Shown: positions 4,028 to 41,845, counted from the first letter of the stretch. The stretch: DNA of 43,181 nucleotides from Betaproteobacteria bacterium RIFCSPLOWO2_02_FULL_63_19 (GCA_001770415.1 MEQX01000015.1:31453-74633), one strand, 5' to 3'. A program made the numbers and translations. The notes: generated by a model not told the origin, from the letters alone.

Positions 4028-4810
4028 ATGAAGCAGCGTTCTCCCGGTTCCTCCGAAGAACCGATCCGCCTGTCCAAACGCATGAGCGAGCAGGGGCTCG
4101 CCTCGCGCCGCGAAGCCGACGAGTGGATCAAGCGCGGCTGGGTGCGCATCGACGGCGAGATCGCGGTGCTCGGCGCCAAGTGGGCGCCGGGGCAGCAAAT
4201 AAGCATCGACGAGCGCGCGCGGCGGCAGCAGGCGCGTCGCATTACCGTGCTGCTGAACAAACCGGTCGGCTATGTGAGCGGGCAGGCCGAGGACGGCTAT
4301 CAGCCGGCCAGCGTGCTGGTGACCCCGGAGAACCAGTGGCGTCCACCGGCGGGAAAGGCGACCAGCGAAGGGCGCCTGCAACGCAAGGACCTTCTCGGCC
4401 TCGCCCCCGCGGGCCGGCTCGACATCGATTCGACCGGCCTGCTGGTGCTGACCCAGGATGGCCGCATCGCAAAACAGCTGGTCGGCGAAGGTTCGGGTCT
4501 GGACAAGGAGTATCTGGTGCGCGTTCGCACGGTCAAAGGCGGGCGCCTGCCGGATGAGGAGCTGAAACGCCTCAATCTGGGGCTCGCGCTGGACGGACGG
4601 GCGCTGCGTCGCGCGCGCGTGACCTGGCAGAACGACGACCAGCTGCGGTTCATCCTGCAGGAAGGCCGAAAGCGCCAGATTCGGCGCATGTGCGAGCTGG
4701 TGGGCCTCGAGGTGCTCGGGCTCAAGCGCGTGCGCATCGGGCGGGTTCGGCTAGGCGAGCTGCCGCTGGGCAAGTGGCGTCTGCTCGGGCCCGACGAGAA
4801 GTTTGCTTGA
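4028..4810 (+). CDS. rRNA pseudouridine synthase, RsuA/RluB/RluF family (N-terminal S4 domain)
   Basis: 260 aa with an S4-like RNA-binding N-terminus (LSKRMSEQGLASRREADEWIKRGWVRIDGE) and the catalytic-core motifs GRLDIDSTGLLVLTQDG and KEYLVRV. The start could instead be the internal MSEQ codon at about 4082. Confidence 0.75.
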   Translation: MKQRSPGSSEEPIRLSKRMSEQGLASRREADEWIKRGWVRIDGEIAVLGAKWAPGQQISIDERARRQQARRITVLLNKPVGYVSGQAEDGYQPASVLVTPENQWRPPAGKATSEGRLQRKDLLGLAPAGRLDIDSTGLLVLTQDGRIAKQLVGEGSGLDKEYLVRVRTVKGGRLPDEELKRLNLGLALDGRALRRARVTWQNDDQLRFILQEGRKRQIRRMCELVGLEVLGLKRVRIGRVRLGELPLGKWRLLGPDEKFA

Positions 4811-6018
4811 CGAGTACTGCAGAAATCGTCTGGACCGAAGACGGCGCCGAGCGCAGGGCGCGATGGCATTCGGAAGCCGCGCTGCCGGCGCCCCCGCGTG
4901 TCGTGGTCGCTGACGACCGGATCAGCGCTGACAAGGCCTATCGCCTGGCGTGCGAGGGAACGGCGTTGCTGTGGCGCGGCGATTTCCAGAATGCGCGGCA
5001 ATTGGTGCGGGCGCTGGCGACGCGCATCGATCGCAGCACCGGCCCGGGAACGGCCAAGCCGGACGCCGCAGAATTCCCCGGGGCATTCCATCGCTACCGC
5101 ATGGCGCGCGCCCAACGCGCACGCACCCTTGGCATGCTGCTGATCCCGATCGATGCAGGCCATGCCATTCCGTTGCGCCGGGCACCGGACGTACGGATTG
5201 CGTGCACCGAAGCATACGGCAACGTCGATGCACCCTACGTCATTTCGCTGCGCGAACTGCTTGGCGTGATCGGCGCGCATGAGTGGCGGCGCAAAGGGGT
5301 GGACGTGCTGGGCGACGGAGTGCGTATTCATGCGCACTACGGTGTGTTCTCGCCGATGCGCGCCGAATATGTCGAACTCGCCGCACGAGCGCCGCTGCCG
5401 AAAGCCAAGCTCGTTTTTGATATCGGTACTGGGACCGGCGTGCTCGCGGCGCTGCTCGCGCGGCGCGGCATCGAGCGCGTGATTGCGACCGACGTGGATG
5501 AGGCTGCACTGGCCTGCGCGCGCGAAAACCTGGGCCGGCTGGGGCTTCTGGATCGCGTGCAGGTGATCGAGGCCGATCTGTTTCCGCCCGAAGCGGCGGG
5601 GTGTGCCGATCTGATCGTCTGCAACCCGCCGTGGCTGCCGGGCAAGCCGACCTCCCGGCTGGAATGCTCGATCTACGATCCGGAGAGCCGCATGCTGAAG
5701 GGCTTTCTCGCGGGGCTCGGCGCCCGGCTTGCACCGGGGGGCGAGGGCTGGTTGATTCTCTCCGACTTCGCCGAGCATCTCGGACTTCGGACGCGCACGG
5801 AACTCGAAGGCTGGTTCGACGCCTGCGGCCTCAAGGTGCTCGGCCGCCTCGAGGCGCGGCCGCGGCACCCCAAGGTTTTCGATGTCGTCGATGCGCTGCA
5901 TGCGGCGCGACAGGCGGAAGTGACGTCGCTGTGGCGGCTGGGCGCGTCAACGCCTGTCCCGATGCGGCGATCCGGAACTCCAAGCGTTGATGCGGGTCAA
6001 CCCGCCCCCGACGCGTGA
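4807..6018 (+). CDS. Class I SAM-dependent methyltransferase (NPPW motif) with about 200-aa N-terminal extension
   Basis: The ORF track gives 4690..6018, which overlaps the upstream gene. An in-frame TTG at 4807 overlaps the upstream TGA stop in a TTGA arrangement. The C-terminal half has a SAM-binding motif (VFDIGTGTGVLAA), a D-loop (ATDVD) and a CNPPWLPG amino-methyltransferase motif. The exact start codon is uncertain. Confidence 0.6.
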   Translation: MTSTAEIVWTEDGAERRARWHSEAALPAPPRVVVADDRISADKAYRLACEGTALLWRGDFQNARQLVRALATRIDRSTGPGTAKPDAAEFPGAFHRYRMARAQRARTLGMLLIPIDAGHAIPLRRAPDVRIACTEAYGNVDAPYVISLRELLGVIGAHEWRRKGVDVLGDGVRIHAHYGVFSPMRAEYVELAARAPLPKAKLVFDIGTGTGVLAALLARRGIERVIATDVDEAALACARENLGRLGLLDRVQVIEADLFPPEAAGCADLIVCNPPWLPGKPTSRLECSIYDPESRMLKGFLAGLGARLAPGGEGWLILSDFAEHLGLRTRTELEGWFDACGLKVLGRLEARPRHPKVFDVVDALHAARQAEVTSLWRLGASTPVPMRRSGTPSVDAGQPAPDA

Positions 6019-27913: not shown

Positions 27914-30196
27914 ATGAAGATATGCCGGATTCCACCGGCGGGCAGCCTTGTCAGCGCGGGTGCGCTTGCCACGCTGTTCGCGCTCGGCGCCGCACCGGCG
28001 ATGACGGGTTGCAGCGAGGTTTCCAACAACCCGCACCCCTTCGGTTCGGAGCAGACAAACACGCTGTTCGTCCCTTTCCGCGCGCGTTCGCCGAAATACC
28101 TCGATCCGACCAGTTCGTACTCCAACGACGAGGCCGTGTTTACGTTCCAGATCTACGAGCCGCTCTATCAATACCACTATCTGAAGCGGCCCTATGAACT
28201 GATGGGCCGCGCGGCCGAAGAAGTCGCACGGCCGCATTACTTCGATGCGTCCGGCAACGCGCTGCCGGACGACGCACCCGGCGAGCGGGTTGCGCAGACC
28301 GTGTACGGCATCAAGATCAGGCACGGCATCAAGTTCGCGCCGCATCCGGCGTTCGCGCGCGATGCGAGGGGCGATTACCGGTACCACTCGCTTAAACGCG
28401 AGGACGTCGCCGACAAGTACAAGGTCACCGATTTCAAAGAAACCGGCACGCGCGAGTTGACTGCGGACGATTATGTCTACGCAATACGCCGGCTGGCGAC
28501 GCCGCGGATCAAGTCGCCCGCGTTCTCGACGATGGCCGATCACATCGTCGGGCTGAAGGAGTACGGCCGCAGGATCGTCGCGGTCGATCGGGCCATGCGC
28601 AAGGGCCTGGCGCCGACCGACCGTGACCTGCCGTTCCTCGACTTTCGCCGGTACGGGTTTGCCGGCGCCGAGGCGCCCGATCGGTACACACTGCGCATCC
28701 GCGTGATCGGCAAGTACCCGCAGTTCAAGTACTGGCTCGCGATGCCGTTCTTCGCGCCGATTCCGTGGGAGGCCGAGAAGTTCTACTCGCAACCGGGAAT
28801 GGCGGAGAAGAACCTCACGCTCAACTACTGGCCAGTCGGCACCGGGCCGTACATGCTGACCGAATACATCGAGAACAGGCGACACGTGCTCACCCGAAAC
28901 CCGGATTCCCACGGCCAGTCCTACCCCTGCGAAGGTGAACCTGGCGACAAGGAAAAAGGGTATCTCGCCGACTGCGGCAAGACGATTCCTTTCGTCGACA
29001 AGGTGGTTTTCGACATCGAGAAGGAGGGGGTGCCGCTGCAGGCCAAGTTCCTGCAGGGGTACTACGACTCGCCGGCGATCGAGCGGCTCGACTACGGCAC
29101 CGGGCTCATCGTCGCGATGGGCGATTCGAAGGACAAGGAAAGGGAATACCGCGAAAAGGGCATCAAGCTTCCCACCACCGTCGAGGCGACCAACTGGTAC
29201 ATCGGCTTCAACTGGCTCGATCCGGTGCTCGGCAGGGGCGACACGCCCGAGCAGGCAGAGCGCAACCGCAAGCTGCGCCAGGCGCTGTCCATCGCGATCG
29301 ACTGGGAGGAGCGCGTCGCGATTTTCGAGCGCGGGCAGGGCGTCGCGGCGCATGGCCCGCTTCCGCCGTCGCTGTTCGGCTATCGCGCGGATGGACCTGC
29401 GGCCTTCAACCCTGTGGTCTACACCCGGGGTACGGACGGAAAACCGGTCCGGCGTCCAATCACGGAGGCGAAGAAGCTGCTGGCCGAGGCGGGCTACCCG
29501 GACGGGCGCGATGCGAGGACCGGCAAGCCGCTGGTCATCAATTTCGATTACCAGAGCTCGCCGACGCCGGGGGTCAGGGCGCTGCTCGACTGGTATCAGA
29601 AGCAGTTCGCGAAGATCAATGTTCAACTGGAAATCCGCGCCACCGACTACAACCGGTTCCAGGACAAGATGAACAAGGGCGTGGTCCAGATGTACTTTTG
29701 GGGGTGGCTTGCCGATTACCCGGATGCAGAGAATTTCCTGTTCATGCTGTACGGGCCGAACTCCAAGGCACTGACGGGCGGCAACGGAGAGAACAACAGC
29801 AACTACCAGAACGCGGAGTACGACCGGCTGTTCGACCGGATGAAGTTCCTCGACGACGGCCCCGAGAAGCAGAAACTGATCGACCGGATGATCGAAATCC
29901 TGCAACGGGACGCAGTGTGGAGTTTCGGATACTTCCCGACTTCAGCCGCCGCCTATCACCAGTGGGTGTACAACGGCAAGCCGACACAGATCATCCGCAA
30001 CCACATCGGCTATCTGCGGCTTGACCCCGAGCTTCGCGCGCGCAGGCTGGCGGAGTGGAACAAGCCGATTTGGTGGCCTGTTCCGCTGATGTTCCTGTTG
30101 CTGATCGCGGCCGTCATTCCCGCCTGGTTCGGGTGGCGCAGGAGGGAGCGGGAAACCGCAGCGCGCACGCTGGCGCGCGAAGGAGCCCGGCCTTGA
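27914..30196 (+). CDS. ABC transporter substrate-binding protein, family 5 (YejA/OppA-like), lipoprotein with unusual C-terminal TM segment
   Basis: 760 aa. It has a signal peptide with a lipobox (PAMTGCSE) and the SBP_bac_5 fold. The C-terminal end IWWPVPLMFLLLIAAVIPAWFGWRRRERE is hydrophobic and TM-like. Confidence 0.85.
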   Translation: MKICRIPPAGSLVSAGALATLFALGAAPAMTGCSEVSNNPHPFGSEQTNTLFVPFRARSPKYLDPTSSYSNDEAVFTFQIYEPLYQYHYLKRPYELMGRAAEEVARPHYFDASGNALPDDAPGERVAQTVYGIKIRHGIKFAPHPAFARDARGDYRYHSLKREDVADKYKVTDFKETGTRELTADDYVYAIRRLATPRIKSPAFSTMADHIVGLKEYGRRIVAVDRAMRKGLAPTDRDLPFLDFRRYGFAGAEAPDRYTLRIRVIGKYPQFKYWLAMPFFAPIPWEAEKFYSQPGMAEKNLTLNYWPVGTGPYMLTEYIENRRHVLTRNPDSHGQSYPCEGEPGDKEKGYLADCGKTIPFVDKVVFDIEKEGVPLQAKFLQGYYDSPAIERLDYGTGLIVAMGDSKDKEREYREKGIKLPTTVEATNWYIGFNWLDPVLGRGDTPEQAERNRKLRQALSIAIDWEERVAIFERGQGVAAHGPLPPSLFGYRADGPAAFNPVVYTRGTDGKPVRRPITEAKKLLAEAGYPDGRDARTGKPLVINFDYQSSPTPGVRALLDWYQKQFAKINVQLEIRATDYNRFQDKMNKGVVQMYFWGWLADYPDAENFLFMLYGPNSKALTGGNGENNSNYQNAEYDRLFDRMKFLDDGPEKQKLIDRMIEILQRDAVWSFGYFPTSAAAYHQWVYNGKPTQIIRNHIGYLRLDPELRARRLAEWNKPIWWPVPLMFLLLIAAVIPAWFGWRRRERETAARTLAREGARP

Positions 30197-31170
30197 TCAG
30201 CTACATCATCCGCCGCATCGCATACGGCGTGCTGATCCTGATCGGCGTTAACCTGTTTACGTTCGTGCTGTTCTTCACGGTCAACACGCCCGACGACATG
30301 GCACGGATGAACATCGGCGGCAAGCGCGTCTCGCCGGACGCCATCGAAAAATGGAAGGTCGAGCGCGGCTACGACAAGCCACTGCTGTGGAACGCCTCCG
30401 CTCCCGGAGCGGATAAGCTGACGAATACGATTTTCTTCGATCGCTCGGTGCAGTTGTTCGCATTCGACTTCGGCTCGTCCGACAGCGGTCGCGACATCGG
30501 TTACGAAATCCGGCAGCGGGTAGGTCCATCGATCGCGGTCGCGGTGCCCACCTTCCTGCTCGGGCTATTTGTCGTGATCGTGTTCTCGCTGCTGCTGGTG
30601 TTTTTCCGCAACACCTACCTGGAGTTCTGGGGCTTCGCCATTGCCGTTTTCATGATGGCGATTTCATCTCTGTTCTACATCCTGATCGGGCAGTTCCTGT
30701 TCAGCAAGCTGCTGAAGCTGGTGCCGATTTCCGGGTTCGCCGGAGGTACCGACCTGATCGTGTTTCTCGCGCTGCCGGTGCTGATCGGGATCGTCTCCCG
30801 GCTCGGCGCAGAGGCGCTTTTCTACCGGACCATGTTTCTCGAAGAGATCGGCAGGGACTACGTGCGCACCGCACGGGCCAAGGGCCTTTCGGAGACTGCC
30901 GTGCTGTTCCGCCACGTGCTGCGCAACGCGCTGCTGCCGATACTCACCAGCACCGTGGCGGTGTTGCCGCTGTTGTTTCTCGGCGCACTGATCATGGAAT
31001 CATTCTTCGGCATACCGGGACTCGGCAGCTACACCATCGATGCGATCAACGCGCAGGACTTCGCGATCGTGCGCTCGATGGTGTTCGTCGGTTCGCTGCT
31101 CTACATCATCGGCCTGATCCTGACGGATATCTCGTACACGGTCGCCGACCCGCGCATTCGGCTGAGTTAG
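30193..31170 (+). CDS. ABC transporter permease (YejB/DppB-like)
   Basis: ORF 30055..31170. The likely start is a TTG at 30193 that overlaps the SBP stop (TTGA), with an AAGGAG ribosome-binding site at 30180-30185. It has BPD_transp_1 permease features. Confidence 0.85.
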   Translation: MISYIIRRIAYGVLILIGVNLFTFVLFFTVNTPDDMARMNIGGKRVSPDAIEKWKVERGYDKPLLWNASAPGADKLTNTIFFDRSVQLFAFDFGSSDSGRDIGYEIRQRVGPSIAVAVPTFLLGLFVVIVFSLLLVFFRNTYLEFWGFAIAVFMMAISSLFYILIGQFLFSKLLKLVPISGFAGGTDLIVFLALPVLIGIVSRLGAEALFYRTMFLEEIGRDYVRTARAKGLSETAVLFRHVLRNALLPILTSTVAVLPLLFLGALIMESFFGIPGLGSYTIDAINAQDFAIVRSMVFVGSLLYIIGLILTDISYTVADPRIRLS

Positions 31171-31178
31171 CGACGCCC

Positions 31179-32654
31179 ATGCCCAAACTGGTCTTTCTCG
31201 CCACCGATATCGTTCTATACCTGCTGCTGGCCGCGATGGCTTTCTATGCGTGGCACGCGCTGCGCACACCGACGCTGCGCCAGGCCTGGCGGGCCGTCGC
31301 GAGCGATTCTGCCGCAATGTCGGCAGCGGTCGTACTCGGCGCCTTCCTGCTGGTCGCGGTGCTCGATTCGTTCCATTACCGCCCGCGGCTGCCCGCCGCG
31401 CCCGGGGTGGCGGCGGGCGCGCCGGTGGCGTACTCGACGCAGACGTTGTCGGTGCTTGATGCGCTGCTCGCCGGCCCGCGCGAAGCGCGCGAGAAGACCT
31501 ACTCCGTTCCGCTCGGCACCCACCAGTACTCGAAGGAATCGATGCTGGTCGGGGGCAAGATGATCCGCGATTTTCCCAGGCTGCAGTTCGGCGGTCCGCA
31601 CCTCAAGGATACCGGCCGCGACTGGATCGGCGATCTCGTTCGGCGATCGGCGGCCGGACTGGCCGGCGGTGCGCTCGCCGCCGCGACGCTGTGGCTCGCT
31701 GTCGCTGCGCTGCGTGCGCGCGGCACCGGGGTCGGAATCAGGGAGTCGCTGCGCGCAATTCGGCACAAGACCACGTACATTCCGTGGCGGGCAATGCTGC
31801 TGACGGCCGCCGCGCTGGCGCTTTTCGTCGGCTGGGTGGCGGCGCTGTGGCCGTGGTACCACGTGTTCGGGACCGATCAGACCGGGAACGACATCCTGTT
31901 CCAGGCGATCAAGTCGGTGCGCACGGCTTTGGTGATCGGCTCGCTCGCCACGCTGGCCACGCTGCCGTTCGCGATCGTATTCGGTATTCTTGCCGGCTAC
32001 TACAAGGGCCGGGTCGACGACGTCATCCAATACATCTACACGGTGCTGTCATCGATCCCGTCGGTGCTTCTGATCGCCGCTTTCGTGCTGATGATCCAGG
32101 TGTTCATCGACAAGAACCCGCAGATGTTCGAGACGGGCGTTGAACGTGCCGACGTTCGCCTTTTCCTTCTGTCGGCTATTCTCGGCATCACCGGGTGGGC
32201 GTCGCTGGCGCGGCTGCTGCGCGCGGAGACGCTGAAGCTCACCGAACTCGAGTACGTGCAGGCAGCGCGCGCGTTCGGCGTTTCCGACGCCGGCATCATG
32301 CGCCGGCACATCCTGCCCAACGTGATGCACGTCGTGCTTATCGTCGCCGTGCTGGACTTCTCGGGTCTCGTGCTCTACGAAGCGGTGCTGTCGTACGTCG
32401 GCGTTGGCGTTGACCCATCGACCAACAGCTTCGGTACGATGATCAACAGCGCGCGCACCGAGCTGGCGCGGGATCCGCTCGTATGGTGGAACCTGCTCGC
32501 CGCGTTCGCATTCATGGTGACGCTGGTGCTGGCGGTTCAGCTTTTCGCGAGCGCGGTGCGGGAAGCCTTCGACCCGCGTTCGCGGGCGTTTCGCCCGCAC
32601 CGGGCCAAACCTGCTGCGGGCCGCGCGCGCGGCGCCGTAACCGAAGCGCCGTAG
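31179..32654 (+). CDS. ABC transporter permease (YejE/DppC-like) with about 150-aa N-terminal extension
   Basis: 491 aa. It has the permease EAA-like region (…YVQAARAFGVSDAGIMRRHILPN…). Confidence 0.85.
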   Translation: MPKLVFLATDIVLYLLLAAMAFYAWHALRTPTLRQAWRAVASDSAAMSAAVVLGAFLLVAVLDSFHYRPRLPAAPGVAAGAPVAYSTQTLSVLDALLAGPREAREKTYSVPLGTHQYSKESMLVGGKMIRDFPRLQFGGPHLKDTGRDWIGDLVRRSAAGLAGGALAAATLWLAVAALRARGTGVGIRESLRAIRHKTTYIPWRAMLLTAAALALFVGWVAALWPWYHVFGTDQTGNDILFQAIKSVRTALVIGSLATLATLPFAIVFGILAGYYKGRVDDVIQYIYTVLSSIPSVLLIAAFVLMIQVFIDKNPQMFETGVERADVRLFLLSAILGITGWASLARLLRAETLKLTELEYVQAARAFGVSDAGIMRRHILPNVMHVVLIVAVLDFSGLVLYEAVLSYVGVGVDPSTNSFGTMINSARTELARDPLVWWNLLAAFAFMVTLVLAVQLFASAVREAFDPRSRAFRPHRAKPAAGRARGAVTEAP

Positions 32655-32663
32655 GCTTCCTGC

Positions 32664-34493
32664 ATGCTGCGGATCGAAAACCTGACCACCGACCTCGATT
32701 CGGACAGCGGCCTGGTGCGGGCCGTCGACGCGCTGTCTCTCACGATCGAGCGCGGCGAGACGTTCGCTCTGGTCGGCGAGTCGGGCTGCGGCAAGTCGAT
32801 GGCGGCGCTGTCGATCCTGCGGTTGCTGCCGGACAGCGGCCGCGTGAGCGCCGGCAGCGTCCACGTGGACGGCATCGATATCACCCAGCTGCCCGAGGCG
32901 CGGATGCGCGATATCCGCGGCCGGCGCGTCAGCATCATCTTCCAGGAGCCCTCGACCAGCCTCAACCCGGTGATGACCGTGGGCCGGCAGATCACCGAGG
33001 TGATAGAACGCCACACTGCGCTGCGTGGTCCGGCGGCGGTGGAGAAAGCGGTCGACTGGCTGCGCAGGGTAGGTATTGCGGAACCCGAGCGGCGCATCAA
33101 CGACTACCCGTTCCAGATGTCCGGCGGGCAGAAGCAGCGTGTGATGATCGCGATCGCGCTTGCCGCCGATCCGGATATCGTGATCGCCGACGAGCCGACG
33201 ACCGCGCTCGACGTCACCATCCAGGCGCAGATCCTCGAACTTCTCGTGAAACTGCAGGCCTCGCAGCAGATGGCGATGCTGTTGATCACCCACGACCTGG
33301 CAATTGTCGCGCAGGTGGCGCAGCGCGTCGCGATGATGTACGCGGGCCAGATCGTCGAAGTGGCGGAGGCGAAGGAATTCTTCGCGCGCCCGTCGCACCC
33401 GTACGCAGTCAATCTGTTCGAAGCGCTGCCCGATACGAGCAAGCGCGGGCGCAGGCTGGCATCGATTCCCGGTAGCGTGCCAACGCTCAACCAGCAATTT
33501 ACCGGCTGCCGTTTCGCCGAGCGCTGCGGCAACGTGACCGATCGCTGCCGCAGCGCGCCACCGCCGCTGGTCGAATACCGGCCGGGCCACGCAGTGCGCT
33601 GCGTCCTCTATCAGGGCGTGACGCCGGCCGAGGCGGTAGAGCGCGTTTCCAACAAGGATGCCGCGCTGCCGCCCAGTTCCGCGACCGGCGACACGGTTCT
33701 GGAGGTTCGCGACTATCGGGTCTGGTTTCCGATCCGAAAGGGCCTATTCAAGCGTACGGTAGGTCATGTCAAGGCGGTCGACGGAGTGTCGTTCACGCTC
33801 GCGGCGGGGCGCACGCTCGCGCTCGTCGGCGAATCCGGCAGCGGCAAGACGACGGTCGGCAAGGCGGTGCTGCAGCTGTTGCGAAACACCGCGCGCATCA
33901 GCGGCTCGGCACGGCTCGCGGGGGTGCCGCTGGAGACGATGCACGGGGAAGCGCTGCGCTGCGCGCGCCGCACGGCGCAGATTGTGTTCCAGGATCCGTT
34001 CGCCTCGCTCGATCCACGCATGCGCGTCAGGGAGATCCTCGAGGAGGGTGTCGCTTCGCTGCGTCCGGACGTCGCGCCGGGAGAGCGCGCCGAGCGCGTC
34101 GTGGCGCTGCTCGAAAGGGTGGGGATGAGAAGCGATGTGCTGACGCGCTATCCGCACGAGTTCTCCGGCGGCCAGCGGCAGCGCCTGGCGATCGCCCGTG
34201 CGCTCGCGGTGGAGCCAAAGCTGATCGTCGCCGACGAACCGACGTCCGCGCTCGATGTGTCGGTGCAGGCGCAGATACTCAATCTTCTGCAGCAATTGCA
34301 GTACGAGCTAGCGGTAGCCTACCTGTTCATTACGCACAATTTCGGCGTCGTCGAATACCTTGCCCACGAAATCGCGGTGATGAAGGAGGGGCGGCTGGTT
34401 GAAACCGGGAGCGCGGAGCAGATTCTGAACCGCCCGCAGCACGAGTACACGCGCACGCTGCTCGCAGCGGTGCCGCGGTTGAGCCGGGCATAA
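32664..34493 (+). CDS. ABC transporter ATP-binding protein with two fused ABC domains (YejF-like)
   Basis: 609 aa. Two Walker A motifs (GESGCGKS and GESGSGKT), two LSGGQ signatures (MSGGQKQR and FSGGQRQR) and two Walker B motifs are present. Confidence 0.9.
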
Positions 34494-34906
34494 AGCCGCG
34501 CTCCCGGGAGCGGTGAGCCTGCCTTTCTAGGTACGGTAAGCGCGATCACTCGAACTACGGTGCATGCGCGGGTGAGGCAGCGCGTTCAGCATGTTGCCAG
34601 ATTCGAGCATCATCCCACCTATCAAAGTGCCCCGAAGACTGGGGGAAGACCAGAACTCCTCGACCATGCTCTCGAGGCCCTCGTAGCGGGCACTATGGAA
34701 TTCGTCCTGCGCAACGGGCTGCCCGGGGTCATACGGCGCGAGCAGCGTCTTTGTGCCGCCTTTCTTTCCCGCGATCAGCATTCCGCACGATTCTCGACCA
34801 ACCGGTTCAAATCGGCCTTAGGGCGACCCGACCTGATCCCGGATTCGTGGGATTGACAGTCAAGTTCAGCGGCAGCACAATGTGCGCCCATTACTGTCGA
34901 GGCGAC

Positions 34907-34999
34907 ATGAGAACAGTGGCACCAATGAACGAATTGCGGACCGGATCGCTGCAAAGCTGCAGCGAGGCCCCCGCGTATCCGGGAGCGGCGTTCGAGTAG
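34907..34999 (+). CDS. Small ORF A (30 aa, MRTVAPMNELRTGSLQSCSEAPAYPGAAFE), immediately followed by an intrinsic terminator
   Basis: A GAGGCG ribosome-binding site lies 5 nt upstream of the ATG. It is in frame within track ORF 34751..34999 and is paralogous at the DNA level to small ORF B. It is not supported beyond this context. Confidence 0.2.
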   Translation: MRTVAPMNELRTGSLQSCSEAPAYPGAAFE

Positions 35000-35021
35000 C
35001 GCGGCGCGCGATCGACCCGTG

Positions 35022-35054
35022 GCCCGGACTGCGCGAGCGCTCCGGGCTTTTTTG
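35022..35054 (+). terminator. Rho-independent terminator (GCCCGGA...TCCGGGC + TTTTTTG)
   Basis: A 7-bp GC stem with a 12-nt loop is followed by a T6 run. Confidence 0.6.
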
Positions 35055-35089
35055 TTTCTGGTTGAACGTGAACGACGACGAGTGAACTG

Positions 35090-35218
35090 ATGAGGACAGG
35101 ATCAAACGTGACGAAATGCAGCCAAGCGGCACCAGATCTGCGCGCCGCCTCGCCCGCGCTCGTGCTCGAGTACGGCGATCGGACAGCGCCCGCAATCCAG
35201 GCGGAGGAAGGAATGTAA
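35090..35218 (+). CDS. Small ORF B (42 aa, MRTGSNVTKCSQAAPDLRAASPALVLEYGDRTAPAIQAEEGM)
   Basis: Runs from the ATG at 35090 to a TAA at 35216-35218. Its 5' end (ATGAGGACAGGATCAAACGTGACGAA) resembles that of ORF A (ATGAGAACAGTGGCACCAATGAACGAA). A second terminator follows it. Confidence 0.2.
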   Translation: MRTGSNVTKCSQAAPDLRAASPALVLEYGDRTAPAIQAEEGM

Positions 35219-35245
35219 CGTACGCACCAGTTGCGTTCTCACGAA

Positions 35246-35282
35246 GCCCGGGTTGCGCCGCAAGGCCCCCGGGCTTTTTTGT
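35246..35282 (+). terminator. Rho-independent terminator (GCCCGGG...CCCGGGC + TTTTTTG)
   Basis: A GC stem is followed by a T6 run, and it sits immediately before the first tRNA-like gene. The tail (CCGGGCTTTTTTGT) is nearly identical to that of the first terminator. Confidence 0.6.
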
Positions 35283-35359
35283 GCCCCGCCGGCGGAATCG
35301 GCATACGCACGCGTTTCAGAAACGCGCATCTCCGGGTTCGAATCCCGGGTGGGGTACCA
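35283..35359 (+). tRNA. tRNA-like gene, anticodon CAG (Leu box) on a short-variable-arm (type I) body
   Basis: A cloverleaf can be drawn. Acceptor is GCCCCGC/GTGGGGT (two G-U pairs). Anticodon stem CGCGT/ACGCG with loop TTCAGAA. T-arm is CCGGG-TTCGAAT-CCCGG, with A73 and an encoded CCA. A Leu anticodon with a 5-nt variable loop is non-canonical. Confidence 0.55.
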
Positions 35360-35502
35360 GAGTTTTGCAGCAGAAGTTTTGCATTACCCGCGCCGGCACA
35401 GCGTCCGGGACTACGCGGTTTGCTCTTTGACAATTTGGATGTGGCACAACTTCGTCCGCGCGGGCAGGTGCCGCGCGCGGACGGAGTGTGGATGACGCAC
35501 GT

Positions 35503-35577
35503 GCAGACATGGCTTAACGGGCAGAGCGCGACGTTGCCAGCGTCGAGGCGCGGGTTCAAGACCTGCTGTCTGCACCA
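35503..35577 (+). tRNA. tRNA-Gly (GCC)
   Basis: Acceptor GCAGACA/TGTCTGC is perfect. D stem is GCTT/GAGC. Anticodon stem CGACG/CGTCG with loop TTGCCAG. T-arm is GCGGG-TTCAAGA-CCTGC and CCA is encoded. Confidence 0.8.
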
Positions 35578-35583
35578 GTTTTC

Positions 35584-35658
35584 TTTCCCGTCGTCTAACG
35601 GTCAGGACCGCGGCCCTTCAAGCCGCGTATGCCGGTTCGAGTCCGGCCGGGAATGCCA
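35584..35658 (+). tRNA. tRNA-Glu (TTC)-like, non-canonical (C33, U1-U72)
   Basis: It has a Glu-type 3-bp D stem (GTC/GAC). Anticodon stem GCGGC/GCCGC is perfect, with loop CCTTCAA (C at position 33). T-arm is GCCGG-TTCGAGT-CCGGC and CCA is encoded. The first acceptor pair is mismatched. Confidence 0.55.
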
Positions 35659-35665
35659 AACGTTC

Positions 35666-35746
35666 GGAAGGTGGCGCTCGTGCAAGCAAACGGTTTCGAA
35701 CACCGTCGCCAACCCGATGCGGGTTCGCCTCCTTCACCTTCCGCTA
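35666..35746 (+). tRNA. tRNA-like, anticodon CGA (Ser box), about 12-nt variable region, no encoded CCA
   Basis: Acceptor GGAAGGT/ACCTTCC is a perfect 7 bp. Anticodon stem ACGGT/ACCGT with loop TTCGAAC. The T-stem is weak (GCGGG-TTCGCCT-CCTTC). The 3' tail reads G-CTA. The D-arm is not cleanly resolved by eye. Confidence 0.4.
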
Positions 35747-35747
35747 T

Positions 35748-35823
35748 GGGGACGTGGCTCAATCGCCAGAGCGCCTGCCTTGCAAGCAGGAGGGTGTCGG
35801 TTGGACTCCGACCGTCTCCACCA
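35748..35823 (+). tRNA. tRNA-Ala (TGC) with G3:U70 but aberrant T-loop (TTGGACT)
   Basis: Acceptor GGGGACG/CGTCTCC includes G3-U70. D stem GCTC/GAGC. Anticodon stem CCTGC/GCAGG with loop CTTGCAA. T-arm is GTCGG-TTGGACT-CCGAC, with G56 instead of C56. CCA is encoded. Confidence 0.7.
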
Positions 35824-35824
35824 A

Positions 35825-35901
35825 CTCGCTGTAGCGCAGCTGGCCAGCGCGCCTCGTTCGGGGCGAGGAGACCGCAGGTTCGAATCCTGCCGGCGAGACC
35901 A
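35825..35901 (+). tRNA. tRNA-Pro (CGG)
   Basis: Acceptor CTCGCTG/CGGCGAG has a C1-G72 pair as in bacterial tRNA-Pro. D stem GCGC/GCGC. Anticodon stem CCTCG/CGAGG with loop TTCGGGG. T-arm is GCAGG-TTCGAAT-CCTGC and CCA is encoded. Confidence 0.8.
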
Positions 35902-35906
35902 ACATT

Positions 35907-35983
35907 ACCTCCTTAGTTCAACGGAACGAGAGCGCGCGGCCACGGACCGCGAGATGAGGGTTCGAATCCTTCCGGGGGTACCA
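35907..35983 (+). tRNA. tRNA-Arg (ACG)-like, non-canonical (C33, G37, A1-U72, 7-66 mismatch)
   Basis: D stem GTTC/GAGC with a 10-nt loop. Anticodon stem CGCGG/CCGCG is perfect, with loop CCACGGA. T-arm is GAGGG-TTCGAAT-CCTTC and CCA is encoded. Confidence 0.55.
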
Positions 35984-35992
35984 GTTCGGCTC

Positions 35993-36065
35993 GGCACTGT
36001 AACTCAGAGGCCAGAGTGCCCGCCTGTCGAGCGGAAGACCGCGGGTTCGAATCCCGTGAGCGTCG
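35993..36065 (+). tRNA. tRNA-Asp (GTC)-like, degenerate acceptor, no encoded CCA
   Basis: D stem ACTC/GAGT. Anticodon loop CTGTCGA. T-arm is GCGGG-TTCGAAT-CCCGT. Acceptor GGCACTG/GAGCGTC pairs at 5 of 7 positions. The 3' tail is G-CGA. Confidence 0.5.
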
Positions 36066-36077
36066 CGAGCATCCGCA

Positions 36078-36153
36078 CGGCGCGTAACTTAACGGCGAAA
36101 GGTCCTGACTCTTAATCAGCGAGATGCAGGTTCGAATCCTGCCGCGCCGACCA
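36078..36153 (+). tRNA. tRNA-Lys (CTT)
   Basis: Acceptor CGGCGCG/CGCGCCG is a perfect 7 bp. D stem ACTT/AGGT. Anticodon loop CTCTTAA. T-arm is GCAGG-TTCGAAT-CCTGC, with A73 and an encoded CCA. Position 26 is missing or the anticodon stem is 4 bp. Confidence 0.7.
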
Positions 36154-36155
36154 CG

Positions 36156-36232
36156 CCCCGCGTAGCTCAGCCGGAAGAGCGCCTGCCTTGTAAGCAGGAG
36201 GACGCGCGTTCGAATCGACGCCCGGGGCACCA
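36156..36232 (+). tRNA. tRNA-Thr (TGT)-like with degenerate T-stem
   Basis: D stem GCTC/GAGC. Anticodon stem CCTGC/GCAGG with loop CTTGTAA. The T region GCGCG-TTCGAAT-CGACG pairs poorly. Acceptor CCCCGCG/CCCGGGG pairs at 6 of 7. The 3' tail is CACCA. Confidence 0.45.
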
Positions 36233-36233
36233 T

Positions 36234-36309
36234 GCTTCCGTAGCTGGTCTGGTGAAAGCGCCGGCCTGAAAAGCCGGAGAGGTTCGTTCGAATCGAACGG
36301 GAAGCGCCA
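36234..36309 (+). tRNA. tRNA-Phe (GAA)
   Basis: Acceptor GCTTCCG/GGGAAGC pairs at 6 of 7. Anticodon stem CCGGC/GCCGG is perfect, with loop CTGAAAA. T-arm is GTTCG-TTCGAAT-CGAAC and CCA is encoded. The D stem is 3 bp. Confidence 0.75.
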
Positions 36310-36314
36310 ACAGA

Positions 36315-36389
36315 AGGGGCGTAGTTCAGCGGCAGAACGCCGGACTCTGAATCCGGATGTCCCTGGTTCGATCCCAGGCGTCCCCGCCA
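36315..36389 (+). tRNA. tRNA-Gln (CTG)
   Basis: D stem GTTC/GAAC. Anticodon stem CCGGA/TCCGG with loop CTCTGAA. T-arm is CCTGG-TTCGATC-CCAGG. Acceptor AGGGGCG/CGTCCCC pairs at 6 of 7, with a 1-72 A-C mismatch. CCA is encoded. Confidence 0.7.
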
Positions 36390-36395
36390 GTTAAT

Positions 36396-36471
36396 GCCGG
36401 TCCAGCTCAGCGAGCAGAGCATTCCCCTGATAAGGGAAAGACCCGCAGTTCGAGTCCACGGGCCGGTACCC
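36396..36471 (+). tRNA. tRNA-Ile (GAT)-like; 3' CCC instead of CCA, two T-stem mismatches
   Basis: Acceptor GCCGGTC/GGCCGGT has two G-U pairs. D stem GCTC/GAGC. Anticodon stem TTCCC/GGGAA with loop CTGATAA. T-arm CGCAG-TTCGAGT-CCACG resembles enterobacterial Ile GGTGG-TTCAAGT-CCACT but carries two stem mutations. Confidence 0.55.
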
Positions 36472-36476
36472 GTCAT

Positions 36477-36552
36477 CGTCCAGTAGCTCAATCTGTGGAG
36501 CGGCGCGCTGTTGACGCGAGGGCTGCAGGTTCGAAGCCTGCCTGCACAGCCA
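36477..36552 (+). tRNA. tRNA-Asn (GTT)-like, degenerate acceptor
   Basis: D stem GCTC/GAGC. Anticodon stem GCGCG/CGCGA with loop CTGTTGA. T-arm is GCAGG-TTCGAAG-CCTGC. Acceptor CGTCCAG/CTGCACA pairs at 5 of 7. CCA is encoded. Confidence 0.55.
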
Positions 36553-36804
36553 GTTTCAATGGCGATCTTGATGTAGGAGCAGCACGGCGGAACGTGACTC
36601 CGCAGGCGCCGGTGCGATTCCGGCAGATCACCCCATCCCGGCTGCCACATCCCAAGTAATGCTCGCCGCGATTCGCGGCGGGCGTAAAGAGTTTGTCGTG
36701 ACCGGTTCTGCAGCGGGTAAGGCTCGTGAGTCCTGCCTGGCGCGCTCGGCCCGAAACATCGGCCCTGTGTGTACCGCGGAAACGGGAGCGACGGACACCA
36801 CGAA

Positions 36805-36877
36805 GTGTGGATAGCTCAGTGGAAAGAGCAATCGGCATAGGTCCGATGAGTCGCGGGTTCGAATCCCGCTCCGAAGC
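36805..36877 (+). tRNA. tRNA-like gene with non-canonical anticodon loop (CATAGGT; A33; anticodon position reads TAG), no CCA
   Basis: D stem GCTC/GAGC with loop AGTGGAAA. Anticodon stem ATCGG/CCGAT. T-arm GCGGG-TTCGAAT-CCCGC is perfect. Acceptor GTGTGGA/TCCGAAG is poor, with mismatches at 1-72 and 3-70. A weak AT-rich hairpin (36881-36900) follows it. Confidence 0.4.
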
Positions 36878-37154
36878 AGCAAAAGGCCTTGAAAGCCTTT
36901 AACGCAGTACCGGACCGGCTTCCGCACGCTCCGCAGAACATCGCGGTGCAGGCACCGGGCGTCAGACCGAGTGCGCCGTGCGGCGCGCGCGGGCGAAACG
37001 GCAACAGCCGAGCGTGAGCGGCGCTCGTCGTCCAGGGCAACGGGCGGGAGTTCGCGAGCGCGAGGCGCGGCAGTTTTCCCCCGCACGCGCGGCGGAGCCC
37101 GTCGGCGAACGGGAAGCCGGGGCCGGAATCTTTGACGATGGATGGAGTTGAGCG

Positions 37155-37379
37155 ATGTTGATGAATGAGGTGGCATTAACGGTTCGCCTGACTGGCCGCG
37201 AAGCGGATGTGCTGCGGCTGATCGCGCGCGGCTGCACGTACGCGCAAGTCGCCGAGCGGCTCGGCATGTCGGCGCACACGGTGGGCTCTCACGTCAAGAA
37301 CGCCTACCGCAAGCTCGACGTCCACTCGGCGCCTGCGGCGGTGATGCGCGCCATCCAGCTGCGCCTGCTCGAGACATGA
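37155..37379 (+). CDS. LuxR/GerE-type HTH transcriptional regulator (stand-alone 74-aa HTH)
   Basis: LTGREADVLRLIARGCTYAQVAERLGMSAHTVGSHVKNAYRKL is a canonical LuxR C-terminal HTH. A GGAG ribosome-binding site precedes the ATG. Confidence 0.8.
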   Translation: MLMNEVALTVRLTGREADVLRLIARGCTYAQVAERLGMSAHTVGSHVKNAYRKLDVHSAPAAVMRAIQLRLLET

Positions 37380-37408: not shown

Positions 37409-38557
37409 ATGATGATGCCGTTTCGCAAGTTTCGTGTGAAGAAGGACGAACGTGCGCTGCTGTTCGACCGCGGCGACTTCGTCGAGGTGCTGGGTCCGGG
37501 CGAGCACGTTCGCTTCGACCCGCTGTTCCGTCTCGCGCTGCAGACGTTCGCGCTTGCGGAGCCGCGCTTCGAGCACCGGCTGGGCGACTGGCTGGTGAAG
37601 GCCGAGCGTGAAGTCGTGGAGCGCGAGTTCCACTTCGTCGAGCTGGGGCCGACCGAGGTGGGCATGCTCTTCGCGGACGGCGTGCTGCTCGAAGTGCTGG
37701 CGCCGAACACCCGCCAGCTGTACTGGAAGGGTTACATCGACCTGCGCTTCGAGCGTATCGACATCGCGACCGACTTCGCGGTCGACGCGAAGCTGGTGCC
37801 GCAGCTGATCGCCTTCACCGGCCACGACTTCAAGGTGCTGGTGAAGGGCGGCGCGGGCGTGTACGGCGTGCAGGTGCCGGCTTTCCATGTGGCGGTGCTG
37901 TACGTGAACGGCAAGCTGCATGGCGTGATCGAGGCGGGCGCATACGCGTACTGGGCCTTCGGCCGCGATCTGCGCGTCGAGTTCGTGGACCTGCGTCTGC
38001 AGGCAATCGAGGTGGCGGGCCAGGAGATCCTGACCAAGGACAAGGTGCCGCTGCGCGTGAACCTGAACGCCGGCTACCGCGTGACCGATGTCGTGACCGC
38101 GTACGGGAAGCAGGCCAAGCCGGCTGACTTTCTGTACAAGGAGCTCCAGTTCGGTCTGCGCGCGGCGGTGGGTACACGTACCCTGGACGAGCTGCTGGAA
38201 AACAAGGGCGTGATCGACCAGGTAGTTGCGGCGCACGTCGCGCAGCGCGTCGAGGCCTTCGGCCTCGAGGTGGATTCGGTCGGCGTCAAGGACATCATCC
38301 TGCCGGGTGACATGAAGACGATCCTGGCGAAGGTGGTGGAAGCGGACAAGATCGCGCTCGCCAACGTGATCCGTCGTCGCGAAGAAACCGCGGCGACCCG
38401 TTCGCTGCTCAACACCGCCCGCGTGATGGAGGACAACCCGACCGCGCTGCGGCTGAAGGAGCTGGAGACGCTGGAAAAGGTCACCGAAAAGATCGACAAG
38501 ATCTCGGTCTTTGGCGGCCTCGACGGCGTGCTCAAGGATCTGGTGAAGATCCGATGA
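37409..38557 (+). CDS. SPFH / band-7 (slipin/stomatin-like) domain protein
   Basis: 382 aa. The SPFH core is …EVAGQEILTKDKVPLRVNLNAGYRVTD… followed by …VKDIILPGDMKTILAKVVEADKIALANVIRRREETAATRSL…. Confidence 0.85.
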   Translation: MMMPFRKFRVKKDERALLFDRGDFVEVLGPGEHVRFDPLFRLALQTFALAEPRFEHRLGDWLVKAEREVVEREFHFVELGPTEVGMLFADGVLLEVLAPNTRQLYWKGYIDLRFERIDIATDFAVDAKLVPQLIAFTGHDFKVLVKGGAGVYGVQVPAFHVAVLYVNGKLHGVIEAGAYAYWAFGRDLRVEFVDLRLQAIEVAGQEILTKDKVPLRVNLNAGYRVTDVVTAYGKQAKPADFLYKELQFGLRAAVGTRTLDELLENKGVIDQVVAAHVAQRVEAFGLEVDSVGVKDIILPGDMKTILAKVVEADKIALANVIRRREETAATRSLLNTARVMEDNPTALRLKELETLEKVTEKIDKISVFGGLDGVLKDLVKIR

Positions 38558-40732: not shown

Positions 40733-41845
40733 TTAGCCCTTGATGTTGAGGATCGGCAGCACATGGGCCACGACCTCCACCATCTCATTTTGCCGGCGCA
40801 TCACCTCGAAGATGCTCTTGTAGGCGAATGGAGACTCGTCAAGCGTTTCATCCGTCACCCGCGCCACAACGCCGGCCATCGTTTCGGCGAAGCTCTCCAT
40901 CGTCAGCGTCCGTTTGGCTTCCTTGCGCCCGAGCACTCGCCCCGCACCGTGTGAGCTGGACCACAGCGCATCCGCGTTGGCCTTGCCGCGCACAATGAAT
41001 GAGCCGTCCCGCATGTTTCCCGGGATGACGCCCATCATTCCTGCCTCGGCATGTGTCGCACCCTTGCGGTGAATCCAGAGGCCGTCTTTCTGCTCTGCGT
41101 GGTTGTGGTTGCTGTTGATGAGCGCGCCCCAATCCGCCGTGCCAGGCAACAGCGCGTCCATCACGGCGACGATCCGCCGCATCATCTCGAGCCGATTCTC
41201 CAGCGCGAACGCGAGGCAGAAGACCATGTCCTTCGTGTAGTCCGCTCCTTCCATGCTTTCGACTGCGAACCCGAAATGCCCTTCGCGGGCCTTTCCATCG
41301 CCACTGGCGAGCCTCATATAGTGTGAGGCCGCTGCGTGTCCGATGCCACGGCTCCCGGAATGAATGATGATCCAAACCTTCCCGGTTTCGTCCGCGCCAA
41401 CCTCGGCAAAGTGGTTTCCTCCGCCAAGCGAGCCGAGCTGCCTGTGTCCGTTCTTGGCGAAAATTTCCTGCATCTTGTTGGTGCGCGGCAGGCTGTCGCC
41501 TTCGCTCCACTCGGTGTTTCTGGCGTTGTGCGAGAAGCCGACCGGCACTGCCTTGTAAATGCCGTCGAAAATCTTTCGCGCCTTTGCGCGCACGTCTTCG
41601 GCTTTGTGGCTGGTCGGCAGCGCGCACATTCCGCAGCCAATGTCGTACCCCACCCATGCAGGGAGCACTACGCCATCCGTTGCAACCACGCCGCCAATCG
41701 GCAGCGAGTAGCCGGCATGTGCATCAGGCATCAGCGCCCCACGCACTGCGAACGGCTGTTGCATGGCGCTCGCGAATTGATTCAACGCCTCCTGTTCAAG
41801 CACATCGGCGAATATCCGGTAGGGTTTGTCGGTGTTGATTTGCAT
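40733..41845 (-). CDS. rtcB: RtcB-family RNA 3'-phosphate ligase
   Basis: 370 aa. It has RtcB metal- and GTP-binding motifs: PDAHAGYSLPIGG, GGGNHFAE, HSGSRGIGH, NHNH and SSHGAGR. Confidence 0.9.
   Translation of the reverse strand: MQINTDKPYRIFADVLEQEALNQFASAMQQPFAVRGALMPDAHAGYSLPIGGVVATDGVVLPAWVGYDIGCGMCALPTSHKAEDVRAKARKIFDGIYKAVPVGFSHNARNTEWSEGDSLPRTNKMQEIFAKNGHRQLGSLGGGNHFAEVGADETGKVWIIIHSGSRGIGHAAASHYMRLASGDGKAREGHFGFAVESMEGADYTKDMVFCLAFALENRLEMMRRIVAVMDALLPGTADWGALINSNHNHAEQKDGLWIHRKGATHAEAGMMGVIPGNMRDGSFIVRGKANADALWSSSHGAGRVLGRKEAKRTLTMESFAETMAGVVARVTDETLDESPFAYKSIFEVMRRQNEMVEVVAHVLPILNIKG

Follow-up and report, generated by a model that had tools for sequence, protein, structure and literature searches.

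Most work on long tRNA arrays has dealt with Firmicutes, cyanobacteria, mycobacteria, Acidithiobacillus and phages, and what these arrays do is still debated. L-arrays spread horizontally and add redundant transfer RNAs (tRNAs) that are silent until induced by translational stress (PMC8421152, PMC10272220); in Anabaena, the L-array stays silent until ribosome inhibitors induce it, and it promotes survival (PMC8421152, PMC10272220). Phage and mycobacterial tRNA arrays have been proposed to act as anti-defence or anti-tRNase systems (PMC10264068, PMC12803027). In Proteobacteria, tRNA arrays are uncommon and have usually spread horizontally (PMC4758250, PMC8421152). Here, we analysed a stretch of 43,181 nucleotides (hereafter the window) from Betaproteobacteria bacterium RIFCSPLOWO2_02_FULL_63_19 (GCA_001770415.1, MEQX01000015.1:31453-74633), an uncultured groundwater betaproteobacterium, in which a preliminary description had reported a dense array of same-strand tRNA genes at positions 35283-36877. 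Our analysis suggests that this array is probably a chromosomal L-array, a spare set of one tRNA per amino acid that was acquired once, has been inherited vertically, would serve as a conditional pool and is partly decaying.

ARAGORN at default settings called 15 tRNA genes, all on the plus strand and all inside 35283-36877, and no tRNA in the remaining ~41.5 kb of the window. Thirteen of the 15 units passed the gathering score of the Rfam tRNA model RF00005 (29 bits) under default filters, and all 15 did so under permissive filters (34.6-66.2 bits, E values of 6.5e-05 to 1.3e-13). The dense same-strand array is thereby borne out, and the two programs clearly found more than the one or two tRNAs at most with which the proposal would have fallen. 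Together with a decayed unit bearing the anticodon CGA, the array comprises 16 units, a density of about 10 tRNA genes per kb (16 units in 1,595 bp). The earlier count was 14 units plus a fifteenth at 36805-36877; all of these exist, 13 of the 14 as ARAGORN calls and one as the CGA unit, but the list had overlooked tRNA-His(GTG) at 36562-36635, which both ARAGORN and Rfam found. The fifteen anticodons listed at that time were all correct. The array cannot be ascribed to misassembly, as four independent assemblies agree exactly in every part of 34494-37154 that they share. The proteins encoded in the flanks are likewise identical to those of four metagenome contigs, which match the array region at 100% where they cover it, and the SPFH protein is 100% identical to one of Betaproteobacteria bacterium RIFCSPLOWO2_02_FULL_63_19.

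The spacers measure, in order, 143, 6, 7, 3, 1, 5, 9, 11, 1, 1, 5, 5, 5, 9 and 169 nt, with 1-11 nt for those inside the core. CCA is encoded in 12 of the 16 units. The T loops read TTCGAAT or near variants in most units, as had been claimed for all of them, the exceptions being Ala (TTGGACT), His (TGCGATT) and the CGA unit (TTCGCCT). The units carry 16 different anticodons, the best identity between any two of them is 77% (typically 64-72%), and no isoacceptor is repeated beyond two units that would nominally be Leu. Like an L-array, the array therefore has one orientation with spacing that permits co-transcription (plus strand, core spacers of 1-11 nt), and is non-periodic without local duplication. 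It also exceeds the density of at least 2 genes per kb in the definition of a tRNA array unit by Tran et al. 2016 (PMC4758250); that definition also asks for at least 20 genes, a number that the window's array, with 15 confident units and one decayed unit, does not reach, and the best-preserved relative has 19.

Among species representatives, those nearest to the host belong to uncultured Burkholderiaceae and to the Rubrivivax, Ideonella and Rivibacter group, with only 60-70% identity of the ABC ATPase. This ATPase belongs to a peptide-type ABC importer upstream of the array (27914-34493), which was used as an anchor to fetch 80 loci, of which 30 were scanned. The importer proved to be the wrong anchor: downstream of the importer, none of the 30 scanned loci has the array or the pair of GerE (LuxR-type) and SPFH (slipin) genes that follows it in the window, and the 26 related ABC-importer loci carry neither. 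Use of the SPFH protein as the anchor succeeded. Seven other fetched loci, six of them complete, carry homologous arrays in the same order directly upstream of GerE-SPFH or of SPFH alone, namely L103 (18 units; SPFH 91% identical to that of the window), L100 (19 units; 85%), L105 (8 units; 82%), L107 (12 units; 81%), L111 (10 units; 80%), L112-114 (11 units; 78%) and L099, in which a contig end leaves only the array tail (91%). Both GerE and SPFH lie downstream of the array in L100, L103, L099 and L111, and SPFH alone in L105, L107 and L112.

The common order is Leu-CAG, a long spacer, subsets of Gly, Glu, Ala, Pro, Tyr, Arg, Asp, Lys, Val, Met, Thr, Phe, Trp, Gln, Ile, Asn and His, and at the end one or two odd units; taken together, the arrays of the family cover 19 amino acids with one tRNA each. 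The outer flanks vary between loci, while the insertion point is constant in all lineages, and in the window the cassette extends from 35283 to ~36707. Judging from this synteny, the array is tied to the GerE/slipin side and not to the ABC importer, at a fixed chromosomal locus in at least seven lineages, and the importer became its neighbour by later rearrangement. Three further loci (L101, L102 and L106) have the GerE-SPFH pair without an array. In L102 the upstream terminator and the downstream block remain, as do 23 nt from the start of the tRNA-Leu, showing that this locus has lost the array. Such patchiness, with the array present in seven lineages at one locus and absent from L101, L102, L106 and the 26 importer loci, fits one old acquisition followed by losses.

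In sequence the units stand far from canonical tRNAs of the host type, as expected of a foreign set. Those for Asp and Glu share only 66-67% identity with their near-invariant canonical counterparts in Burkholderiales, and canonical Burkholderiales tRNAs score 56-70.5 bits in Rfam, compared with 34.6-66.2 bits for the array units. Isotype hallmarks are kept in many units, including G3:U70 in Ala, C1:G72 with A73 in Pro, G-1 with C73 in His, G73 in Asp, Asn and Gln, and the unpaired 1:72 of Gln. The array anticodons pair with the commonest codons of the host (CTG 54%, GGC 60%, CCG 69%, AAG 81% and CAG 84%; TTC, ATC, AAC and CAC 75-82%), indicating that the set duplicates the main decoding capacity instead of supplying rare codons. 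Met, Trp, Val, Tyr, Cys and a working Ser are missing from the window's array. Given that it does not supply these essential isoacceptors, that relatives manage without it and that its tRNAs diverge from canonical ones, we infer that the array must be supernumerary, with canonical copies presumably encoded elsewhere in the cell.

We then aligned and folded the sixteen unit families across lineages. Among 352 stem pairs, 289 were invariant, 33 had changed on one side yet remained paired and 30 showed compensatory double changes, the last showing that the cloverleaves are under selection. Only 26 of 1,730 stem cells across lineages were unpaired (~98.6% paired), and 12 of these 26 fell in the window's copy, a rate of 3.9% compared with 0.3-2.4% in the other lineages. 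The array family is thus under purifying selection for tRNA structure, but the window's copy is eroding.

This uneven preservation is visible along the array, all units of which are on the plus strand. The first unit, a type I tRNA-Leu(CAG) of 77 nt with a 5-nt variable loop (35283-35359; 45.6 bits), was called by ARAGORN and has C in place of U8. The core opens with tRNA-Gly(GCC) (35503-35577; 59.7 bits), 97-99% identical to the L100 and L103 copies, and tRNA-Glu(TTC) (35584-35658; 49.3 bits), which has C33 and, in the window's copy, U.U at 1:72. The CGA unit (35666-35744), a decayed tRNA-Ser-like pseudogene absent from the relatives' arrays, had been counted as a gene; it is indeed derived from a tRNA, with perfect 7-bp acceptor and 5-bp anticodon stems, but it is decayed, with a degenerate D arm, an unstructured variable region and no CCA. 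Only relaxed ARAGORN (-ps) calls it, and it falls below the Rfam threshold, giving no RF00005 match under permissive filters and only a tRNA-Sec match of 18.5 bits (E=2.5). It is followed by tRNA-Ala(TGC) with G3:U70 (35748-35823; 66.2 bits), tRNA-Pro(CGG) with C1:G72 and A73 (35825-35901; 60.8 bits; three compensatory pairs across lineages) and tRNA-Arg(ACG) (35907-35983; 40.1 bits; six compensatory pairs), which has C33 and, in the window's copy, a broken 7:66 pair. The damaged tRNA-Asp(GTC) (35993-36066; 47.8 bits) has three broken stem pairs and has lost CCA.

The second half of the core begins with tRNA-Lys(CTT) (36078-36153; 58.7 bits), 99-100% identical to the copies in L100 and L103, and tRNA-Thr(TGT) (36155-36232; 42.2 bits), which has a non-canonical T arm and whose anticodon is AGT in L100 and L107. 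Two pairs are broken in the window's tRNA-Phe(GAA) (36234-36309; 51.6 bits), and tRNA-Gln(CTG) (36315-36389; 61.2 bits) has 1:72 unpaired and G73. The tRNA-Ile(GAT) (36395-36471; 42.8 bits) is damaged, with two T-stem mismatches, loss of G18G19 and a 3' end of CCC, not CCA; tRNA-Asn(GTT) (36477-36552; 46.4 bits) has G in place of A37 and two broken acceptor pairs. The core closes with tRNA-His(GTG) (34.6 bits; T loop TGCGATT; three compensatory pairs), with G-1 at 36561 and C73. Acceptor mismatches are found in the window's Phe, Arg and Glu, and its Val, Met, Trp and Tyr units have been lost altogether. About six units (Asp, Ile, Asn, Phe, Arg and Glu) and the CGA unit are therefore degenerating, and the set is probably still useful only in part.

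Five features of the family are unusual, two of which, an inverted repeat and a structured leader, belong to the sequences around the units. First, the tRNA-Leu(CAG) always stands first in the array and is intact in seven lineages, among which three of its pairs have changed in a compensatory way and none is broken. In the acceptor and D arm it agrees with class II Leu tRNAs, with 8-11 nt of the variable arm absent. A bacterial type I tRNA-Leu has a Leu anticodon and a variable loop of 4-5 nt in a well-formed cloverleaf, and the unit has this structure, with an anticodon loop of YUCAGAA, a 5-nt variable loop and 20 stem pairs intact in the seven lineages. A73 is present in six of the seven and G73 in L105. 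Both nominal Leu units (CAG and TAG) are without the long variable arm.

Second, ~20% of the family's units have C33 where U33 is near-universal, and the isotypes concerned vary between lineages (Glu, Arg, His, Asn, Tyr, Met and Phe); for comparison, it occurs in 2 of 27 tRNAs of the Methylibium plasmid island and in none of 12 canonical tRNAs. A suppressor tRNA in the relatives was considered and rejected, since the ARAGORN call 'Stop-TTA' in L103 and L100 is a register error arising from C33 in the tRNA-Asn(GTT) homologues. A penultimate tRNA-like unit, called 'Ser-GGA' by ARAGORN, is present in L103 (2244-2316), L100 (3263-3337) and L099 (123-194) and absent from the window; it is an RNA of type I size, and the best fold of its anticodon arm has a stem of 5 bp and a loop of 5 nt.

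Third, the last unit (36805-36877, plus strand; 41.9 bits, covering model positions 5-66 only) is called Leu-TAG. It is not a Leu tRNA but a tRNA-like element with a truncated acceptor stem of ~4 bp, A33 and no CCA, in which the D, anticodon and T arms are intact. It is conserved in all ten loci, with or without an array, and its anticodon loop changes with almost every lineage (TAG, TGT, AGT, TTT, GGT or an 8-nt loop). Names based on the anticodon ('Leu-TAG', 'Stop-TTA' and 'Ser-GGA') can thus mislead annotation.

The sequences around the units are also conserved. The sole promoter-like site on the plus strand upstream of the array is a sigma-70-like promoter, TTGACA-17-CACAAT, at 34853-34881, kept at the same site in L102 and L103. 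It is followed on the same strand by a conserved small open reading frame (ORF) of 42 aa (35090-35218), with equal length and frame and tblastn identities of 85% in L103 and 50% in L102, for which no Pfam, NCBIfam or PADLOC match was found. Read from the sequence, a terminator-like GC hairpin with a T-run (GCCCGGG...CCCGGGCTTTTTTGT; 35246-35282, plus strand) stops exactly at the first base of the tRNA-Leu and recurs in every relative, among them the array-less L101 and L102. A repeat of such a hairpin lies ahead of it at 35021-35055. A stretch of ~170 nt ending in the first of the two hairpins along the strand is present in the window and L103 and missing from L102.

The core is bracketed by a perfect 10-nt inverted repeat, GGATGTGGCA (left arm, 35437-35446) and TGCCACATCC (right arm, 36643-36652), both given on the plus strand, which is invariant in all six of the complete arrays examined. 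In L102, which has no array, 14 nt separate the two arms, and these show a compensatory T>C / A>G change. Double changes were observed at three pairs of the repeat, and 28 of 500 shuffles reached the observed covariation score, providing moderate covariation support for a bracketing stem. In L111, an OmpA-domain gene (4529-5122) lies inside the cassette, between the last core tRNA and the right repeat arm. Within the 143-nt spacer before tRNA-Gly, a GC-rich plus-strand hairpin (35449-35487) is kept in L103 and L100 and absent in L105. This spacer also retains a TTGACA/TTTACA box, but a sigma-54 or sigma-70 promoter was rejected there, as no -10 or -12 element accompanies the box.

The right-hand edge of the cassette is a conserved non-coding block on the plus strand (36703-36795), present in all relatives. 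This block of ~90 nt (GCAGCGGG..GGCTCGTGAGTCC..GTACCGCGG) lies between the array and the last tRNA-like unit in every relative. Beyond the tRNA-like element, a structured leader of 277 nt (36878-37154, plus strand) reaches to the start of GerE; alignment and RNAalifold gave 75 pairs, 18 of them with compensatory changes. The leader is strongly conserved with or without the array and has no Rfam match, and we consider it a candidate for a new cis-regulatory RNA. It precedes the gene for a GerE/LuxR-type helix-turn-helix protein of 74 aa (37155-37379) and the SPFH/Band7 (slipin) gene (37409-38557), both on the plus strand.

On the basis of these observations, we propose the following model. An ancestor of an uncultured Burkholderiales clade would have acquired the array once, and it would since have been inherited vertically at a single locus, between the terminator of the small ORF and the leader of a putative GerE-slipin operon. 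As the core yielded neither a sigma-70-like promoter nor an intrinsic terminator, the units from Gly to His may be made as one polycistronic precursor. Read-through from the promoter at 34853 would produce this precursor, the conserved 10-bp flanking stem may close it, and RNase P and 3' nucleases would cut it. If the arrays of Anabaena, phages and mycobacteria are taken as a guide, the products may form a conditional spare tRNA pool, normally kept at a low level, which would matter under translational stress or when housekeeping tRNAs are attacked.

Several observations weigh against this proposal. There is no convincing promoter directly upstream of the array, the first tRNA of which abuts a terminator-like hairpin, and a donor array was not found in scans of phage, plasmid, viral-contig and metagenome-contig sequences. 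Many units show features by which tRNAs are usually impaired, namely C33 in ~20% of units and the non-canonical T arms of Thr and His. The E. coli leucyl-tRNA synthetase needs the variable arm and charges only type II tRNA-Leu (PMC6614811), and the Leu unit lacks this arm. Furthermore, the window's copy is the most damaged of all and units have been freely lost in relatives, so that the usefulness of the array in this particular host may be low.

These points bring to mind a dead relic, in which the units would be non-functional tRNA pseudogenes left by an old transfer and drifting to loss. In keeping with such a fate, the window has 12 broken stem pairs, an Asp unit without CCA, an Ile unit ending in CCC and the decayed CGA unit; units have been lost lineage by lineage, up to the entire array in L102; no promoter was found next to the array; and C33 and odd T arms are frequent. 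Nevertheless, 30 compensatory pairs and ~98.6% paired stem cells have been maintained while the SPFH proteins are only 78-91% identical, and the Lys, Gly, Thr and Pro units are 97-100% identical between lineages when flanking coding DNA is ~82-91% identical. The unusual type I Leu, moreover, is intact in all seven lineages. We therefore regard a dead relic as unlikely.

A more elaborate version of the proposal, which we hold to be doubtful, would treat the locus as a composite RNA locus, in which the promoter, the 42-aa ORF, a leaky terminator, the type I tRNA-Leu, the stem-enclosed cassette, the tRNA-like element, the ~270-nt leader and GerE-slipin would form a counterpart of the cyanobacterial translational-stress regulon, so that the array would be no free-riding relic. 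If so, the enclosing stem would resemble the processing stalk of ribosomal RNA (rRNA) operons, the locus would be a betaproteobacterial version of the regulon that co-controls a tRNA array, slipin and rtcB, and the spare tRNAs would escape anticodon nucleases thanks to their recurrent C33 and to further changes in the anticodon loop.

It is improbable that the units act chiefly in cis, as processing or regulatory modules of one transcript spanning the small ORF, the array, the leader and GerE-slipin, and not primarily as decoders. Such a transcript would account for the terminator adjoining the first tRNA, for the conserved stem enclosing the core, for the retention of the last tRNA-like element and structured leader even without the array, and for our failure to find a promoter between the array and GerE; in Anabaena, the tRNA array is repressed together with rtcB and a slipin gene (PMC10272220). 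However, the GerE-slipin pair functions without the array in L101, L102 and L106, and the core units keep identity elements and canonical anticodons that cis elements would not need.

We next considered the genomic surroundings. The flanks are as previously described, with the peptide-type ABC importer on one side and the LuxR(GerE)/SPFH pair on the other, and the downstream order is GerE/LuxR, SPFH/slipin, and hydrolase, LysR, rtcB and penicillin amidase genes. Between the importer and the array, an 84-aa ORF (34527-34781, minus strand) called in public assemblies is an N-terminal glucokinase remnant; the gene is intact there in L102. The rtcB gene lies 3.9 kb from the array, a linkage judged to be coincidental, since the rtcB, LysR and hydrolase genes are absent from the array neighbourhood of every relative. 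The gene itself (40733-41845, minus strand) encodes a short RtcB-family RNA ligase of 370 aa, adjoins the LysR gene and is without an rtcA or rtcR partner; its best NCBIfam matches are RtcB-family models, all under the cut-off. The remaining ORFs tested in the window encode ordinary metabolic or transport proteins or have no family match. At 10678-13326 (plus strand) lies a gene for a protein of 882 aa made up almost entirely of RCC1-like repeats (Pfam RCC1 and WD40_RLD, 801 bits), which is unusual for a bacterium. As had been supposed, the long ORFs called across the array are artefacts, and none of them matches Pfam; one, of 245 aa on the minus strand, is annotated as a gene in public assemblies, an example of the false ORFs that gene callers put over such tRNA arrays.

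That tRNA arrays are rare in Proteobacteria and usually mobile, as the preliminary description put it, agrees with the literature (PMC4758250, PMC8421152), but no recognisable mobile DNA is present here. Arrays elsewhere are often carried by plasmids, integrative and conjugative elements (ICEs) or phages (PMC4758250, PMC5966550), and the nearest matches to single tRNAs include the phage-like island of Methylibium pPM1 (Thr(AGT) 82-83%, Asp 78%). Even so, we consider it very improbable that a recognisable, still mobile phage, ICE or island carries the array. No integrase, transposase, HNH or phage genes were found by Pfam among the ORFs tested in the 43-kb window or among the gene calls in the relatives' flanks, so that the array is not embedded among phage, integrase, conjugation or homing-endonuclease genes as tRNA clusters of phages, prophages and ICEs are. 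The G+C content of the array equals that of its surroundings, with no shift, and the insertion point is constant although the outer flanks differ. PADLOC gave nothing relevant for the array's neighbours, and no defence genes were found in the 43 kb; membership of the neighbouring genes in a defence system was accordingly dropped.

No homologous array was found in the phage, plasmid and viral collections searched. In distant mode, blastn against 50,697 phage and 72,556 plasmid records returned only matches at the level of single tRNAs, covering at most 9% of the query. Order-specific DNA patterns (the Ala-Pro-Arg anticodon loops, and the Lys-Thr-Phe anticodon loops with T loops) gave only chance matches in viral contigs; in metagenome contigs they gave ordinary Lys-Thr pairs, in a scan that was not exhaustive and also missed the window's own contig.

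Accretive arrays and rRNA-operon clusters are recognised by periodic isoacceptors or by linkage to 16S, 23S or 5S genes, neither of which is seen here; an Rfam search of the window returned no rRNA, which confirms the earlier placement of the array outside any rRNA operon. Despite a single strand, tight packing, mostly encoded CCA and anticodons that fit the commonest codons, an ordinary housekeeping tRNA operon grown by accretion as in Firmicutes is scarcely credible for a non-periodic array that is without Met, Trp, Val, Tyr, Cys and a working Ser, has an internal identity of at most 77%, is 66-67% identical to the canonical Asp and Glu tRNAs, and is absent from the related loci L101, L102 and L106.

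Beyond the window, the array family offers a natural time series, in which one array at one locus can be followed through at least seven diverging Burkholderiales lineages as units are kept, altered and lost, permitting a direct estimate of which spare tRNAs are selected and which decay. It also provides three testable oddities, namely a conserved tRNA-Leu lacking the long variable arm outside Streptomyces, the repeated change of U33 to C, and an inverted repeat enclosing a whole cassette.

Comparison with known systems places these oddities in context. The type I tRNA-Leu(CAA) of Streptomyces coelicolor (PMC6614811) resembles the window's unit in combining a Leu anticodon with a variable loop that is short and in existing beside type II tRNA-Leu, which is presumed for the window's host; the window's unit differs in its anticodon CAG, in heading a tRNA array and in occurring in a betaproteobacterium. 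The 27-tRNA island on pPM1 of Methylibium petroleiphilum PM1 shares a very high gene density and a Burkholderiales host with the window's array and contains its closest sequence relatives, though only as single tRNAs. Its Thr(AGT) is 82% identical to the window's Thr(TGT) and 83% identical to the L100 copy, with the same odd T arm, and its Asp is 78% identical, while gene order and context differ. The island (L085, 243-248 kb) lies on a conjugative plasmid and is interrupted by phage-like genes (HNH, ERCC4, AlkB, HD and NADAR) and by DUF1064, unlike the window's array, and its Leu, Ser and Tyr tRNAs keep long variable arms, unlike the window's Leu units. That the two Thr tRNAs share this odd T arm is a hint that array-type tRNAs in Burkholderiales come from one pool.

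The clusters of phages and mycobacteria for which resistance to anticodon nucleases has been proposed (PMC10264068, PMC5966550, PMC12803027) resemble the window's array in providing a near-complete spare set with anticodon loops unlike those of the host, the deviations here being the recurrent C33 and some G37. By contrast, the window's array is not on a phage or plasmid and has no linked tRNase or defence gene according to PADLOC.

The closest likeness is to L-arrays such as the trn operon of Anabaena sp. PCC 7120, which are likewise same-strand, tight and non-periodic, with about one tRNA per amino acid. They carry redundant rather than new anticodons, as the window's set probably does, and like it they are patchy in relatives and undergo frequent insertion and deletion of units with the order kept. 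No TrcR-type repeats were found at the window's array, for which no search aimed at them was made. Slipin and rtcB are co-regulated with the Anabaena array; in the window, slipin is adjacent and rtcB is 3.9 kb away, and only the slipin link is conserved in relatives. The L-arrays compared contain 23-43 units, whereas the window's array has 15-16 and those of its relatives 8-19. Unlike them, the window's array is chromosomal, occupies a single fixed locus without an HNH homing endonuclease nearby, begins with a type I tRNA-Leu and is bracketed by an inverted repeat. Collectively, the array itself is a further example of the known kind of spare array and will not surprise a specialist; what sets it apart and merits attention is its long vertical history, the type I tRNA-Leu, the recurrent C33, the enclosing repeat, and the tRNA-like element and leader before GerE-slipin.

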